A DNA stretch of 32,693 bases, taken from assembly GCA_949282835.1 (NCBI GenBank), contig CASDQU010000038.1:1-32693 (forward strand). Reading direction: 5' to 3'. This DNA comes from an uncultured Bacillota bacterium. Its GTDB lineage: Bacteria; Bacillota; Clostridia; Christensenellales; UBA1242. The notes beneath the pieces were generated by a model. It searched no databases. It had not been told where the DNA came from and saw only the letters and a list, made by a program, of their open reading frames with translations. The position numbers and the translations under genes were made by a program. Below, piece by piece: positions 19,128-27,539 of this stretch (position 1 is its first letter; each line of letters begins with the position of its first letter).

Positions 19128-20678
19128 TTATTTATTTTCAACTTTTTTTACTTTGTGCATTTCCATAAGCACTTTAGCTGTTGCATATGCATCATTGTAA
19201 GCCCTGTGCGCACCTGTTAAAGTCATATTTAAAGCCTTTACTACAGTGGATAATTTGTAATTAGAAACTCTAAGAGTGGATTGTTTTACCAGAATCATGG
19301 TATCTATAACCTCATTAACAAACTTTAAGCCCACTTTGTTAGCTGCTTTTATTATAAATTTCATATCAAAGCCAACAACATTATAACCGCTTAATATACA
19401 TCCATTTGTCCAATTATAGAAATCACGAATTACACTTTCTATTTTGGGAGCATCTGCAACCATTTCATTTGTAATATTGGTTAAATTTTGAACTTCAAGA
19501 GGTATTGATGAGTTAGGTTTAACTAGACTTGAAAATTGTTCAATAATTTCACCATGTGAAATTTTAACAGCGCCAATTTCGGTTATTTCACAAATATCAG
19601 GGTCTAAACCTGTCGTCTCTATATCAAAAACAACAATTTCATTATTTAATATAAAAGAGTCGTATTGAGGCTTTGTGTCAAATAAATTTTCTTGAGTATT
19701 TCTCGGTATAATGGTAGGAATAACGACAGGTTTGTATTCACCCTCTTTATAAATCTCCTTTGATATATCTTCAGCCAGCATATTAGCCAAAGATAACTTT
19801 TTTATTCTATATACAACTTTTCCATATAAATCTTTTACAATATCGCCAAGGCATAGAACAAAAGTCCCCTCACTTAAAGCCTCCATGTCTTTCAAATAAG
19901 TTTTAGCTGCAAAATAAATACAATCAATATTCCCAGATATGTCTTTTAAAGAAAAGGTGAATAAACTTCTCTCTTCGCCTGCCCTCGCGCCGCGTTTCAA
20001 TGTATAAGATTTTTGCTTTTTATTATTTAAAATACCAGCCAATATAACCGATTGTTTTAATGTTTTATTATTTTTTATGTATTCTGGTTTTGGAAGAATT
20101 TCTCCACCGACAACCTTTTTGATAATCTGGACATTATATCTATTTGTGCCTACAGGTAATGTTATAATATCAGGCGCATCTATTTCATCGGGCAAAACTT
20201 CATCATTTTCTTCAATAATAATTTCAAAATTGGCTATATATAGTGAATTTAGATATTTCATTAATTCATTCTTTAACCCTTGTTCATCAATTAATGAATA
20301 AACATCTTGATTTAATAGAATATTTATTTTTACATTGAGCTGCTCTTGATTAATTGAAAAATTTTCTTCATTTAAATAAGGAATTAAGGCTGGTTTATTT
20401 GTTTTAAAAAACTCTATTATATCATTTAAAATTAATCTCTTATCTAAAAAACTCTTTTTGAATTTTATTTTCACATCGCATTTAAGTGCTAAAAATTCGG
20501 TTATAAACTGTGTAATTAAAGCCTTGTCTTCTTTTGAAATTTCCTCTATTGTTATAGGATATAAAAAAGTTATTGTGCAACATTTGTTATTTTCATTTAG
20601 CACAATACTGTTTAATAATTTTAAATAATTGAATTTATCATCAAATTTTGAATTTAATTTTTCGACTATATCAATCAT
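19128..20678 (-). CDS. PolC-like N-domain + OB-fold + DEDDh 3'-5' exonuclease protein, lacking PHP and polymerase domains
   Basis: 516 aa. The C-terminal ~160 aa carry Exo I VVFDIETTGL, Exo II GYNVVGFDMKFI and Exo III HRAYNDAYATA. Residues ~205-297 resemble the PolC OB domain (VILAGIL....SLFTFSLKD.SGNIDCIYF....L..GTFVLCLGDI). The N-terminal ~200 aa resemble the PolC N-domain. It occupies the polC slot between rseP and rimP. Confidence 0.65.
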   Translation of the reverse strand: MIDIVEKLNSKFDDKFNYLKLLNSIVLNENNKCCTITFLYPITIEEISKEDKALITQFITEFLALKCDVKIKFKKSFLDKRLILNDIIEFFKTNKPALIPYLNEENFSINQEQLNVKINILLNQDVYSLIDEQGLKNELMKYLNSLYIANFEIIIEENDEVLPDEIDAPDIITLPVGTNRYNVQIIKKVVGGEILPKPEYIKNNKTLKQSVILAGILNNKKQKSYTLKRGARAGEERSLFTFSLKDISGNIDCIYFAAKTYLKDMEALSEGTFVLCLGDIVKDLYGKVVYRIKKLSLANMLAEDISKEIYKEGEYKPVVIPTIIPRNTQENLFDTKPQYDSFILNNEIVVFDIETTGLDPDICEITEIGAVKISHGEIIEQFSSLVKPNSSIPLEVQNLTNITNEMVADAPKIESVIRDFYNWTNGCILSGYNVVGFDMKFIIKAANKVGLKFVNEVIDTMILVKQSTLRVSNYKLSTVVKALNMTLTGAHRAYNDAYATAKVLMEMHKVKKVENK

Positions 20679-22969: not shown

Positions 22970-23652
22970 TTTAAACCTCCAAATCTTCTATTCCTCTTTT
23001 GATAAATGTCTAAACATTTTTTTAAATATCTTTCATTAAAATCTGGCCAATAAACTTTTGGGAAATAAAGCTCACTGTATGCCATCTGATAAAGTAAAAA
23101 ATTTGATATTCGCATTTCACCACTTGTTCTAATCACTAAATCTGGCTGCGGTATATCTTGAGTGTCCAAATTTTTCAACAAAAGCTCTTCATCAATTTTG
23201 TTATAGCCCTTTTGTATCAATTTATTCACAGCTCTTACTATATCATCTCGTCCACCATAATTTAGAGCAAAGATTGCACAAGTATCATTGAAATTTTTTG
23301 TCTTTTCTTTGATTTCATACAAAGCATCTTGTAAATCCTTAGGAAATTTTTCTAATGTACCTATAGAAGCAACTTTAATTTTATGTTTTAAGAAAACATT
23401 ATCCTCTTTTCTTAAATATTCTCTTAGAAGGTTAAAAATACCATCAATTTCCTCTTTACTCCGTTTCCAATTTTCTGTAGAAAAAGCAAAAAATGTGCAA
23501 TATTTGATATTAAATTTTTTACAAGCGATAACAGTTTTTTCAATAGCCTTTATACCCTGCTTGTGACCCAAATTACGAGGAAGTCCCCGTTTTGTAGCCC
23601 AGCGCCCGTTGCCATCCATAATAATTCCAATGTGCATTGGTAAATTAGTCAT
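22966..23652 (-). CDS. uppS: isoprenyl transferase (undecaprenyl-diphosphate synthase)
   Basis: HIGIIMDGNGRWA, FAFSTENWKR and IRTSGE.R.SNFLL.Q.AYSELYF are canonical cis-prenyltransferase motifs. Confidence 0.93.
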   Translation of the reverse strand: MTNLPMHIGIIMDGNGRWATKRGLPRNLGHKQGIKAIEKTVIACKKFNIKYCTFFAFSTENWKRSKEEIDGIFNLLREYLRKEDNVFLKHKIKVASIGTLEKFPKDLQDALYEIKEKTKNFNDTCAIFALNYGGRDDIVRAVNKLIQKGYNKIDEELLLKNLDTQDIPQPDLVIRTSGEMRISNFLLYQMAYSELYFPKVYWPDFNERYLKKCLDIYQKRNRRFGGLN

Positions 23653-23693
23653 GTCAATTCCCTTTCTAAAACAAATTGTAAATTATGAATGAG

Positions 23694-24260
23694 TTAGATT
23701 TCCATAATTTCTTTTTCTTTTGTTTTATAATTGGCATCTATTTTGTCACAAGATAAATCTACCAATTTTTGAATATCATCAAAATAGCCATCTCTTTCGT
23801 CTTCTGAAATTTCTCCATTTTTTTCAAGGTCTTTAATCATATCCATTGCATCACGGCGCGCATTTCTAACCGCAATTTTAGTCTCTTCTGCTATCTTTTT
23901 GATTGATTTAACAATTTCAATACGCCTCTCCTCGGTAAGCATAGGGAAAACAAGTCTAATCACTTTGCCATCTTCATTTGGAGTAATTCCAAGATCGGCG
24001 GCAGAAATCGCTTTTGAAATATTTTTCACCTGACTTTGATCCCAAACCGAAATAGCAAGTATGCGTGCTTCAGGTACAGTAATTGAAGCCATATTTTTAA
24101 TAGGAGTTGGCACTCCATAATAATCAACATAAACTTTATCAAGTATATGAGGATTAGCTCTCCCTGCCCGAATAACAAGGTATTCATTAAGTTGATGATT
24201 TATTGCTTTATTAATTTCCTCTTCACAAGACAACTTAATTTCATCTATCATTTCGTTCAT
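23694..24260 (-). CDS. frr: ribosome recycling factor
   Basis: 188 aa, ...RAGRANP..LD.V.VDYYG..TP....A.I.VPEAR.L.I..WD...... IRL..P.LTEERR. Confidence 0.93.
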   Translation of the reverse strand: MNEMIDEIKLSCEEEINKAINHQLNEYLVIRAGRANPHILDKVYVDYYGVPTPIKNMASITVPEARILAISVWDQSQVKNISKAISAADLGITPNEDGKVIRLVFPMLTEERRIEIVKSIKKIAEETKIAVRNARRDAMDMIKDLEKNGEISEDERDGYFDDIQKLVDLSCDKIDANYKTKEKEIMEI

Positions 24261-24278
24261 AATAATCTCCTCGAAAAT

Positions 24279-24307
24279 ATTTTACTATAAACTAATAATT
24301 TTTGCAA
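24279..24307 (-). promoter_or_regulatory. sigma-A type promoter dedicated to frr(-uppS-cdsA-rseP)
   Basis: Minus strand reads TTGCAA (24307..24302), a 17-nt spacer, then TAAAAT (24284..24279), about 18 nt before the frr ATG with its GAGGAG SD. Confidence 0.5.
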
Positions 24308-24390
24308 ATGATTTACATTATTATAATAAGAATATTGGCAAATTTTGTATCGAAAATCAATCTTTTATAATAATTAATATATAGCAAATA

Positions 24391-24419
24391 TTGACATTCT
24401 TTTTATAAAAATATATAAT
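24391..24419 (+). promoter_or_regulatory. consensus sigma-A promoter for the HipA-like two-gene module
   Basis: Plus strand reads TTGACA (24391..24396), exactly 17 nt, then TATAAT (24414..24419), followed by a GAGAGGAAA SD and GTG at 24441. Confidence 0.7.
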
Positions 24420-24440
24420 ATTTTATATAGAGAGGAAATA

Positions 24441-25529
24441 GTGAAAAGAATAAATATTGAGCCCGACAAAAATTGTAAAATTTATCAAACAGAAGCTAGA
24501 GGCGCTAAACCAAAATTTTGGTTTTATTTTCCAGATGATAAATCAGATAATCCAAAACAATGGCTATTTAAAAATACCAATCGTAGCGAAGAGACGACTA
24601 ATGCCTCTAAAACTTTTGAAGATATAGGTGAGGTCATATTTTATAAGATATGCAAAAGGCTGGGCGTTGATTGTGTGGAATATAAACTTGCCCAATATCA
24701 AAAAGGCGATCAAATTGTTGAAGGTGTTATTTGTCAAAATTATAACCCAGATGAATGTGTAGAGCTTTCTGGTTATACAATACTTGAAAATTATAGAAAC
24801 TATATTTATGATAATTTTAATGGTAAAAATGTTCCCAATGATAATACTCTCGAAAATTATAAAAGAAGTTTAAATTGTATTAAAATAACACATACACCAC
24901 TAGAGAGCGAACACGGCACAAATTTGTCCGTTGATATAAACAAAATTTATAAGCAAATGGCAAAAATGTTAATATTAGATTATATATGTTGTCAATCTGA
25001 CAGAAATTGGTTTAATATATCATTTTTGATTGATAGCAAGACCAAAGAATTAAAAATGACGCCTTTATTTGACAATGGCAATATATTCTCTTGGAACTTT
25101 AGAGAATCGGTAATAGAACATCAAAACACAGTTTTGTCAAAATACCCTAAATATGAAAACTATCTAGAATTATATCAATCTAAATCTACTGCCATGGGTG
25201 TAAAAACGCCTGTTTCTCATAGAGATAAAAATAATCCTATTAGATCTATCAATTCAAAATTTAAAGAAATATCTACAAACTTAATTGACCATGAACTTGC
25301 ATCGGTTATCGCAAATGATGAAGAATTACAAGAATTTTTAGCAAATTGCCAAAACATAGGATTATATTTAGAGGAAGCCTTTGAAGAATTTAAAAAGGAA
25401 TATGAAGAAGACTGCTCATTGTTAAGAAATCAAAGCTCTATAATTGCTTCTATAAAAAGCGAACATTTATTACAGCTTGTTAAAAAGAAAATACAAGAAA
25501 TGGAGGTCGATGATGAAAATTCTCTTTAA
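24441..25529 (+). CDS. HipA-family Ser/Thr protein kinase lacking the HipA N-terminal subdomain (HipT-like putative toxin)
   Basis: 362 aa. It aligns by eye to E. coli HipA. P-loop ARGAKPKF matches AGAQEKTA. QWLFK matches THIIK. GEVIFYKICKRLGVDCVEYKL matches NEYYCLLLAKELGLNVPDAEI. Catalytic loop QSDRNWFNISFLI (D187, N192) matches TDGHAKNFSVFI. KMTPLFDNGN (D211) matches RLTPFYDIIS. GTG start. Confidence 0.7.
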   Translation: MKRINIEPDKNCKIYQTEARGAKPKFWFYFPDDKSDNPKQWLFKNTNRSEETTNASKTFEDIGEVIFYKICKRLGVDCVEYKLAQYQKGDQIVEGVICQNYNPDECVELSGYTILENYRNYIYDNFNGKNVPNDNTLENYKRSLNCIKITHTPLESEHGTNLSVDINKIYKQMAKMLILDYICCQSDRNWFNISFLIDSKTKELKMTPLFDNGNIFSWNFRESVIEHQNTVLSKYPKYENYLELYQSKSTAMGVKTPVSHRDKNNPIRSINSKFKEISTNLIDHELASVIANDEELQEFLANCQNIGLYLEEAFEEFKKEYEEDCSLLRNQSSIIASIKSEHLLQLVKKKIQEMEVDDENSL

Positions 25530-25836
25530 ATATATGAATTTTGTTTTAGGCGAACTTTCTTATGAAAATAATAGATATATTTATGACTCTAATATAGAAG
25601 AAGAACAAAAAGCAAAGCGTGCTACTTTTGGCTTGCTGGACTATAGATTATACAATTCTATTAATAAAACTTCAAATCAAATTTTTATTGAATTCTTGCC
25701 CTTTATAAATCAAGCGACAAGACCTGATATCAAAAAAGAATGTCATATAGAAAATAATGACAATGATTTTCAAAAATTAATTAAAATGGCAACTAATAAT
25801 ATTTCAATGGGTGCTTATTCAATATCCATTTTCTAA
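25513..25836 (+). CDS. HipS-like protein (resembles HipA N-terminal subdomain 1; putative antitoxin or partner)
   Basis: About 107 aa. MKILFKYMNFVLGELSYENNRYIY matches HipA KLVTWMNNQRVGELTKLANGAHTFKY. SNQIFIEFLPFI......I........DFQKLIKMATNNISMGAYSI matches SDAVFNFFDNLLPDS..........PFDLLSEIGRDSVGAVTL. ATG 25513 lies 6 nt after GGAGG and overlaps the kinase 3' end by 17 nt. Confidence 0.55.
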   Translation: MKILFKYMNFVLGELSYENNRYIYDSNIEEEQKAKRATFGLLDYRLYNSINKTSNQIFIEFLPFINQATRPDIKKECHIENNDNDFQKLIKMATNNISMGAYSISIF

Positions 25837-25915
25837 TTTGCTTAGTTTACAATTATTCATAAGTAAAACTGTAAACTAAAAACAGAAGGTAAATCATTTT
25901 TGAAACTAGCATAAT

Positions 25916-25953
25916 AAAAAAGAGTTCTACTTTTAGCGGTAAAACTCTTTTTT
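25916..25953. terminator. bidirectional intrinsic terminator shared by convergent tsf and the HipS-like gene
   Basis: AAAAAAGAGTTcTAC-ttttagcg-GTAaAACTCTTTTTT has an A-run on the left and a T-run on the right, so it reads as hairpin plus U-tract on both strands. It lies 22 nt after the tsf stop. Confidence 0.7.
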
Positions 25954-25975
25954 AATTAGTTTGCAATGTGGTTTT

Positions 25976-26632
25976 TTATTTATTGCCTCGCATTTGTTTT
26001 TCAACTTCTTCAGCAAGATTGTCGTTTCGCTTTTCAAGACCTTCTCCCATTTCAAATCTTGCAAATCTTCTAATAGAGATTTTTTCTCCAATTTGAAGAG
26101 TTTTTTCATTGATATATTGCTGAATTGTCATGCTAGGATCTTTGACAAAAGGCTGTTCAAGAAGACAAACATCTTGATAAAATTTCTTAACTCGTCCTTC
26201 TACCATCTTGTCAATAATTTGAGCTGGTTTTCCCTCATTAAGAGCTTGATTTCTCAAAATATCCTTCTCTTTCTCAAGTTCTTCTTGAGGAACTTCCTCA
26301 ATTCTTACATATTTAGGAGCACTAGCTGCTATTTGAAGGGCAACATCATGTCCAATTTCTTGGAAAGCATCAGTTTTAGCAACAAAGTCAGTTTCACAAT
26401 TTATTTCAACTAAAACTCCAATTTTGCCACCCATATGAATGTATGAAGTAACAATACCTTCAGATGCAATTCTTGATTGCTTTTTAGCTGCTGCCGCAAT
26501 ACCTTTTTCTCTGAGCCAAACGATAGCCTTTTCAAAGTCTCCATCACATTCAACTAGAGCTTTTTTGCAGTCCATCATGCCAGCATTAGTTTTTGCTCTT
26601 AATTCTGCTACATCTTTCGCTGTAAAATTCAT
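25976..26632 (-). CDS. tsf: elongation factor Ts (short form)
   Basis: [44 protein letters not shown] is the canonical EF-Ts UBA-like N-terminus. ATG 26632 has a GAAGGAGAA SD and lies 1 nt after the rpsB stop. Confidence 0.93.
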
Positions 26633-26633
26633 A

Positions 26634-27539
26634 TTATTCTCCTTCACTTTCAGATTTTGTTTCTTCTTTGTTTGTTTGCTCTATTTTTTCTTCTTTCTTT
26701 GTCTCTACCTTTTTCTTTGCAGGTTTCTTCTTTGCAGGTTTCTTGCTCTTATGCTCTTCTCCAGCTTCAGCAATTTCAATATTAGGTTTTGTTTCTGCAA
26801 GAACTTTTTCTAAGTCAATATCCTCTTCTTCAACAGTCTCTTCTTTCTTTAAAGATACCCCTTCAGTAGCCTCAATAACTGCATCAGCCATAGCTTGAGC
26901 AATTAATTTAACAGATCTTATTGCATCATCATTGCCAGGAATGATATAGCTAATTCCGTCTGGATTGCCATTGGTATCTACAAGAGCAACCATTGGAATA
27001 CCAAGAATTTTACATTCATTAACGCAAATGTGTTCAACATTAGGATCAACTAGGAATACAGCACCAGGGAGCTCTCTCATCTCTTTAATTCCACCCAAAT
27101 TCTTTTCAAGCTTATCTCTTTCAGCTTTAAGAATTGTAACTTCTTTTTTAGGTAGAAGGTCAAATTCCCCCACTTTTTCCATTTGATTTAATTTGTTAAG
27201 CCTTTCAATTCTTGACTTTATAGTTTTGAAATTAGTAAGGCAACCACCAAGCCAGTGTGAATTGATATAATACATTCCACATCTTTCAGCTTCTTCTTTA
27301 ACAGCATCTTGAGCTTGCTTTTTTGTACCAACAAATAGTACTTTTTTCCCAGAAGCAACAACATCTCTTATAAAAAGATATGCCTTATCAACTTGCTCTG
27401 AGGTTTTTTCTAGATTAATGATGTGAATATCATTTCTTGCAGTAAAAATGAAAGGTTTCATTTTTGGATTCCATTTTCTTGTTTGATGACCGAAATGTAC
27501 CCCTGCTTCTAGAAGTTGTTTCATAGAAATAACCGACAT
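26634..27539 (-). CDS. rpsB: 30S ribosomal protein S2 with a Lys/Glu-rich C-terminal extension
   Basis: [27 protein letters not shown]... is canonical S2. About 60 extra C-terminal residues include [21 protein letters not shown]. Confidence 0.95.

Follow-up and report, generated by a model that had tools for sequence, protein, structure and literature searches.

A divergent kinase-first split HipA pair without HipB, a candidate hipJS-type toxin-antitoxin module, at the tsf-frr junction of uncultured gut Clostridia

We analysed a window of 32,693 nucleotides (nt) from an uncultured Bacillota bacterium (GCA_949282835.1, contig CASDQU010000038.1, positions 1 to 32,693, forward strand), in which two overlapping plus-strand open reading frames (ORFs) of 362 and 107 amino acids (aa) sit between the minus-strand genes frr and tsf. 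The longer ORF encodes a divergent kinase core of the HipA superfamily, and the shorter one a protein whose predicted structure strongly indicates the fold shared by HipS and N-subdomain 1 of HipA. By analogy with known Hip systems, we read the pair as a split-HipA toxin-antitoxin (TA) or abortive-infection-type module with the hipJS layout, and we put the probability of this reading at roughly 0.6. The two genes are:

24441..25529, plus strand: kinase ORF, GTG start, 362 aa; HipA-superfamily Ser/Thr kinase core (HipT/HipJ/CtkA-like)
25513..25836, plus strand: HipS-like small ORF, ATG start, 107 aa; overlaps the kinase stop by 17 nt

The kinase carries the motifs R20-G-A-K-P-K25 (the Gly-rich loop), Q185-S-D187-R-N-W-F-N192 and T207-P-L-F-D211-N-G, so that the catalytic residues D187 and N192 and the Mg-binding D211 are all present, and it ends in a helical C-terminal region (approximately residues 279-361). 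An earlier reading of this DNA from its letters alone (the sequence-only reading) had assigned the protein to the HipA kinases. In Pfam the HipA_C profile (PF07804) did match, at E 9e-6, but over residues 19-88 only and with 25.9 bits, short of the gathering score of 30.5; the match therefore stood while the threshold was missed, and 35 of the 49 members of the kinase family matched the same profile (best 2.6e-13). The PADLOC model PDC-M03A covered residues 13-223 at E 3.9e-20 (70.5 bits). NCBIfam gave no match for the kinase or the small protein, and neither did searches of the PDB with single sequences and close-family profiles. Close clusters of the kinase number only 13 in a set of 5.8 billion proteins, and a profile made from them recovers 694 representatives at E<1e-3 in a library of 1.84 billion proteins. 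When the 49-sequence family profile was compared with the PDB, CtkA of Helicobacter pylori (5.5e-7), HipT of Legionella pneumophila (3e-4) and HipA of Shewanella oneidensis (8.5e-3) were found, and in all three the catalytic and Mg-binding motifs lined up with those of the family. Likewise, hhalign of this profile against residues 109-440 of E. coli HipA, whose sequence was checked against PDB chains (2wiu_A), placed D187, N192 and D211 on D309, N314 and D332, and these three belong to the seven invariant columns of the family alignment (G21, K25, W27, K44, D187, N192 and D211), confirming the kinase core motifs first recognised by eye.

Structure predictions were made using AlphaFold2 (AF2) with database proteins. 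The kinase model (predicted local distance difference test, pLDDT, 79; predicted template modelling score, pTM, 0.80) opens directly at the N-lobe beta-sheet. Since the chain begins only about 15 residues before the Gly-rich loop, it lacks N-subdomain 1 of HipA, as had been proposed from the sequence. Foldseek comparison of this model with the PDB ranked CtkA first (3akk, E 5e-7, template modelling (TM) scores 0.51/0.63), then HipT (7ab3_C, 1.5e-4) and S. oneidensis HipA (4e-4), and comparison with viral structures returned generic kinases only. We therefore assign the 362-aa protein to the HipA superfamily, as a divergent kinase core without N-subdomain 1. A further feature concerns residue E18 (24492-24494), three positions before the Gly of the Gly-rich loop, which is Asp or Glu in all 13 close homologues and which, by G-x3-K spacing, occupies the place of Ser150 in HipA and Ser57 in HipT, both of them autophosphorylated; the acidic residue could be a built-in phosphomimic, or else the motif alignment could be wrong at this point.

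The AF2 model of the small protein, based on an 18-sequence alignment, is compact and has a pLDDT of 96.2. Its top Foldseek match in the PDB was E. coli HipS (7ab3_E, E 5.6e-3, TM 0.63/0.65), and the next were HipS of L. pneumophila (8ezr_A, 7vkb_B), followed by HipA chains, matched in their N-terminal part, and by 7czo, an entry for the isolated 'N-terminal domain of HipA toxin'; altogether, HipS or HipA accounted for 19 of the 21 top matches. This fold evidence argues strongly that the small protein has the predicted fold of HipS and HipA N-subdomain 1. The small protein has no Pfam match, and one of its 19 relatives matched Couple_hipA (PF13657), at E 0.1. An evident homologue encoded in another metagenome (L107:335-670; hhalign 99.1%, E 5e-19) matched Couple_hipA over positions 3-87 of 99 at E 0.009, below the cut-off. 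PDC-M03B of PADLOC matched the small protein weakly (E 0.0068) and at profile positions 18-103 of 248 only, and nothing in it corresponds to the C-terminal half of the model; the three PDC-M03B models together gave 11 matches among the 19 relatives (best 6.9e-5). These bridges through PDC-M03B and Couple_hipA are weak, and may be taken as agreeing with a HipS-like fold.

Apart from the kinase and the small ORF the window has no credible plus-strand gene, in line with the sequence-only reading, and the remaining plus-strand ORFs of at least 100 aa are all nested inside longer minus-strand ORFs. The elements around the pair, and the two genes that bound the slot in which it lies, are as follows:

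24391..24419, plus strand: sigma-70-type promoter, TTGACA-17 nt-TATAAT, with 21 nt between the end of its -10 hexamer and the GTG of the kinase
23694..24260, minus strand: frr (ribosome recycling factor), left edge of the slot; Pfam RRF on orthologues
25976..26647, minus strand: tsf (EF-Ts), right edge of the slot; Pfam EF_TS on orthologues
25915..25954, no strand assigned: AT-rich 16-nt inverted repeat with A and T runs on either side, between the convergent small ORF and tsf

The perfect promoter described earlier was recovered as the sole 12/12 consensus match within 23600-26700 (3.1 kb scanned). Equally borne out were the 17-nt overlap of the two ORFs (25513-25529) and the separate Shine-Dalgarno (SD) sequence of the small ORF, a GGAGG at 25502-25506, 6 nt upstream of the ATG at 25513; alternative in-frame starts are an ATG at 25510 (108 aa) and a TTG at 25477, which gives the longest mechanical ORF. 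Neither the 180-bp upstream spacer nor the 139-bp downstream spacer contains an ORF able to encode a helix-turn-helix (HTH) protein, which upholds the claim that the island has no HipB, and the HipS-like ORF does lie downstream of the kinase, the reverse of the order in HipBST. The G+C content of the island is 26-29% as compared to 31-36% in the flanking genes, and no tRNA or integrase marking an island was found in the window. The arms of the inverted repeat (25915-25930 and 25939-25954) are 94% complementary around a loop of 8 nt; the repeat was not flagged by a terminator scan based on G+C, and it probably serves as a bidirectional terminator. AT-rich palindromes near the promoter were considered as operators and dropped, being indistinguishable from base composition.

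The kinase is encoded in ten species of the GTDB, all of them uncultured gut Clostridia/Firmicutes represented by metagenome-assembled genomes. Every one of these loci has the gene order frr(-), kinase(+), small ORF(+), tsf(-) with both ORFs intact, and the small ORF lies directly 3' of the kinase in 10/10 species as well as in all kinase-carrying relatives from metagenomes; the neighbourhood survey thus found the pairing in every homologue examined. Across loci, identity to the window falls to 42% for the kinase and 39% for the small ORF, while Tsf (91-100%) and Frr (79-96%) are retained across the pair-carrying loci. Pairwise ratios of non-synonymous to synonymous divergence (dN/dS) between species were 0.10-0.23 for the kinase and 0.05-0.24 for the small ORF, both measured over saturating synonymous divergence, and 0.00-0.11 for the flanking genes; dN of the pair was several-fold above that of the flanking genes. 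A promoter with 11-12 of the 12 consensus positions stands 7-27 nt before the kinase start codon in 9 of the 10 homologous loci, and the GGAGG-type SD of the small ORF recurs across them. The kinase and the small ORF are real genes under purifying selection.

Distant relatives of the kinase (P0034, P0035, P0037 and P0039; profile E 1e-74 to 1e-36) occupy unrelated genomic sites, and each has, immediately downstream, a homologue of the window's small ORF, 105-112 aa long, that overlaps or abuts the kinase gene. Several variations on the arrangement were observed besides. At L107:335-2471 and L108:250-2341, the HipS-like ORF comes first and runs into the kinase, after which there is a second kinase gene; the wider family thus does not keep to a single gene order. 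Locus L024 (2835-7608) has one kinase/HipS-like pair followed by three full-length paralogous HipA_C kinases in tandem, which keep intact catalytic residues and have no HipS-like ORF of their own. In one species, an extra 277-aa ORF with no Pfam or PADLOC match, read in the same direction as the kinase, separates the kinase from frr (L009:6963-7796). The P0034 pair, the nearest out-group, has an extra ORF of 84-85 aa just upstream on the same strand (L018:4668-4925 and L019:490-744), which is not recognisably a HipB since it has no Pfam or PADLOC match.

The history of the tsf-frr slot (window 24261-25975) was traced by scanning metagenomes with Frr. The usual occupant of this interval is pyrH, which was found there in all of the more distant lineages fetched (e.g., L044:4071-4832) and which is absent from the slot, from the entire 32.7-kb window and from all close loci. 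The slot is empty in L030 (167 bp; L030:4831-4997) and also in L039, L041 and L042, whereas L026 (4627-4830) carries a gene for a 67-aa XRE-type HTH protein in place of the kinase pair, and L036 (2815-4815) and L037 carry a 666-aa ORF without any family match. The slot is thus a general landing site for unrelated accessory genes. In a neighbour-joining tree of Frr, Tsf and RpsB, the pair-less L030 is sister to the pair-carrying clade and the pair-less L026 is nested inside it, and the kinase tree reproduces the host groupings. The concordance of host and kinase trees is most simply read as a single ancient gain at this landing site, after which the pair descended vertically over a long time and was lost or replaced at least once. 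The pair is therefore not a recent acquisition, having been inherited at the same locus throughout the radiation of the clade. We also considered that the pair had displaced pyrH, and rejected this because pyrH is already missing from the empty slots of the sister lineages. That the kinase might stand in for UMP kinase was set aside on account of its protein-kinase fold, its opposite strand and its HipS-like partner.

The classification of HipA homologues by operon layout (Gerdes, Baerentsen and Brodersen 2021; PMC8262856) provides the closest published counterpart. Its main clade XI includes short core kinases without N-subdomain 1 that have their partners downstream: in hipIN the partner is a HipS-like domain joined to HIRAN, while in hipJS it is HipS alone, with no DNA-binding component; hipJS made up 2 of 1,239 modules and hipIN 14, and both were proposed as TA modules (PMC8262856). 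Our search of the literature on HipJ, HipI and HipL found only this study to be relevant. The sequence-only reading could not connect the arrangement with a named family; it does have a name, as hipJS and hipIN were defined there and the PDC-M03 models match both proteins. Like hipJS, the window pair is bicistronic with the kinase first, its kinase is a short core without N-subdomain 1, and its downstream partner is a single-domain HipS-like protein of about 100 aa, with no HTH or HipB partner, an arrangement kept in all close homologues. On the other hand, published kinases of the HipJ group are 279-321 aa long as compared to 342-363 aa in the present family (362 in the window and 350-363 in the close family), and the helical C-terminal region of the window kinase family sets it apart from HipJ as known from its published description. 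Moreover, the HipS of published hipJS modules aligns with the HipS of hipBST, whereas the small protein of the window shows no detectable HipS sequence similarity, and the window family is farther than the published HipJ from HipA_C and Couple_hipA, with CtkA as its closest solved relative. The hipIN layout and PDC-M03, a candidate and not validated defence system of PADLOC, resemble the pair in that the kinase comes first, PDC-M03A matches the kinase and the N-terminal approximately 85 positions of PDC-M03B match the small protein and its relatives; they differ in that PDC-M03B models span approximately 250 positions and the small protein has no such C-terminal domain. From the operon classification (PMC8262856) and the description of HIRAN+HipA clusters of Gram-positives as predicted defence genes (PMC11706625), we infer that the missing part of PDC-M03B is HIRAN. 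Hence, the layout is already named (hipJS or PDC-M03-like), and the window pair is a divergent new lineage of it with an unusually stable chromosomal history.

Among experimentally studied systems, HipBST of E. coli O127:H6 and L. pneumophila is likewise a split HipA, and by fold the kinase of the window is HipT-like (7ab3_C and 8ezr_B) and its partner HipS-like. In that system the core kinase HipT is toxic alone and is neutralised by HipS (PMC8262856, PMC10627512), which binds at the site of HipA N-subdomain 1 and blocks HipT by Trp65 beside the Gly-rich loop (PMC10627512). In contrast to HipBST, the window has no hipB or other autoregulatory DNA-binding component, the HipS-like gene is downstream instead of upstream, and, judged by motif spacing, the family conserves no Ser/Thr where HipT has S57 and S59. 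CtkA (JHP0940) of H. pylori, solved as 3akj, 3akk and 3akl, is the closest solved structure and the closest profile match to the kinase core, and its DRHxxN catalytic motif and P-x-F/Y-D-x-G Mg motif align with those of the window kinase. However, the similarity extends over profile positions 43-228 only, and the solved entries contain the kinase alone, without precedent for a HipS-like partner; a search for literature joining CtkA with HipA gave nothing useful. Finally, HipAD/DS-6 combines a HipA-family kinase with a partner other than HipB and protects against phage in a manner that requires kinase catalysis (PMC13092281). The window pair shares with it a partner unrelated to HipB, although, as far as descriptions can be compared, the HipAD/DS-6 partner has DUF3037/DUF1829 and is predicted to bind DNA, while here the partner is a HipS-like lid.

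If the pair works as a split-HipA TA module, the consensus promoter would drive constitutive transcription of both genes, and the small protein, translated from the strong SD inside the end of the kinase gene, would supply the missing lid as a separate polypeptide. This lid would most likely dock on the kinase N-lobe by the Gly-rich loop and keep the kinase inactive, as HipS does with HipT. Loss or displacement of the lid, for instance upon phage infection or stress, would then free the kinase to phosphorylate an essential target, and growth would stop. Control would be purely post-translational, as there is no DNA-binding component. HipA targets GltX and HipT targets TrpS, and by analogy the target here would probably be a translation component. 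Binding, inhibition, toxicity, target and trigger are all proposed for the window pair from its likeness to these systems. An accessory character of the pair, as would suit such a module, is suggested by its lower G+C content, its higher dN, its absence from L030, its replacement in L026 and the kinase paralogues of L024.

Several observations weigh against assigning the pair to the TA or abortive-infection modules. Mobile TA or defence genes are not typically passed down vertically at a single locus throughout a clade, as this pair is, and the locus has no neighbouring defence genes. Searches of phage records (tblastn) and of IMG/VR viral contigs found no relative of the kinase, and in plasmid records the only matches were 23% identical, all on megaplasmids of Bacillus thuringiensis. 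Nor does the small protein have significant sequence similarity to HipS or HipA N-subdomain 1: profile searches of the PDB did not reach HipS, even with an enlarged small-protein profile, and hhalign of this profile was not significant against either residues 1-108 of E. coli HipA (P 0.011) or a 9-sequence profile of the HipA N-domain (P 0.025). The by-eye alignment of the small ORF to the N-subdomain in the sequence-only reading therefore did not hold, whereas the relationship itself did at the level of fold, through 7ab3_E and the N-terminal regions of HipA. Furthermore, no Ser/Thr is conserved at -3 or -1 of G21, which by motif spacing are the positions of the HipA/HipT autophosphorylation serines. 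In HipA the N-subdomain is part of the active toxin and not an inhibitor, and a split lid therefore need not be an antitoxin. To our knowledge, no experiment exists on any hipJS-type module.

The most serious competitor, which we consider unlikely, is a domesticated two-subunit kinase. The small protein would then be the N-terminal subdomain in detached form, completing or tuning the enzyme as that subdomain does within HipA, and the holoenzyme would be a lineage-specific housekeeping regulator, for example of translation, instead of a toxin. Such a regulator would fit strict synteny and vertical descent over about ten species while kinase identity fell to 42%, the agreement of host and kinase trees, a strong conserved promoter without an autoregulator, purifying selection on both genes, a location among translation genes and the lack of close relatives on phage or plasmid records. 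It fits less well with a slot that receives accessory genes and is empty in sister lineages, with the loss of the pair in one nested lineage (L026), and with distant relatives at unrelated loci, some of them with multiplied kinases. Moreover, both proteins match candidate defence system models (PDC-M03), and the related HipT is toxic alone and neutralised by HipS (PMC8262856, PMC10627512). The split-HipA TA or abortive-infection-type module stays the preferred reading.

Two further explanations appear very improbable. The pair could be what is left of an old TA insertion, decaying or without function and persisting only by chance, with an inactive kinase or a small ORF that does not interact with it; the sub-threshold HipA_C score of the window kinase, the missing NCBIfam match and the fast evolution of the pair relative to its flanks would agree with decay, but dN/dS of 0.05-0.24 over the two genes, catalytic residues that are all invariant in 49 relatives, ORFs intact in every locus with promoter and SD conserved, and the confident and compact model of the small protein all speak for function. 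Similarly remote is a secreted or effector-type kinase like CtkA, with the small protein as its chaperone or immunity factor. CtkA is the best match by fold and by profile, yet the two proteins resemble each other only in their common kinase core, neither a signal peptide nor secretion genes turned up around the locus, and the HipS-fold partner points to the architecture of the Hip TA systems.

The remainder of the window adds one gene worth recording, at 19128-20678 between rimP and an M50 peptidase gene, which encodes a 516-aa protein with an RNase_T/RNase_H_2 exonuclease domain (orthologues at L001:709-2283 and L005:742-2307).

For the biology of these gut Clostridia, a speculative and rather improbable variant is that a hipJS-type module, inserted once long ago, has been co-opted by the clade as a lasting chromosomal regulator of translation or growth, in the form of a constitutively transcribed split kinase under the sole control of its detachable HipS-like lid; if true, no Hip-type toxin module would have been known before to become part of core physiology through domestication, as this one would have done at the tsf-frr junction. 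For the Hip family, the finding reveals no new principle. Split HipA systems with a separate lid protein are understood only for HipBST, and the kinase-first, HipB-less hipJS layout had been defined from two sequences. The window gives this layout a well-populated family: some 20 close clusters, and hundreds of relatives recovered by the family profile, of which the distant ones examined show the same pairing. It also offers alignments of both partners, a confident model of the small partner, a strong natural promoter and a clear evolutionary history. Its value is therefore that of a test case for HipB-less, kinase-first split Hip modules, and it would be a convenient one for asking whether a HipS-like protein alone, without a DNA-binding partner, controls a Hip kinase, and whether hipJS-type modules act in phage defence.

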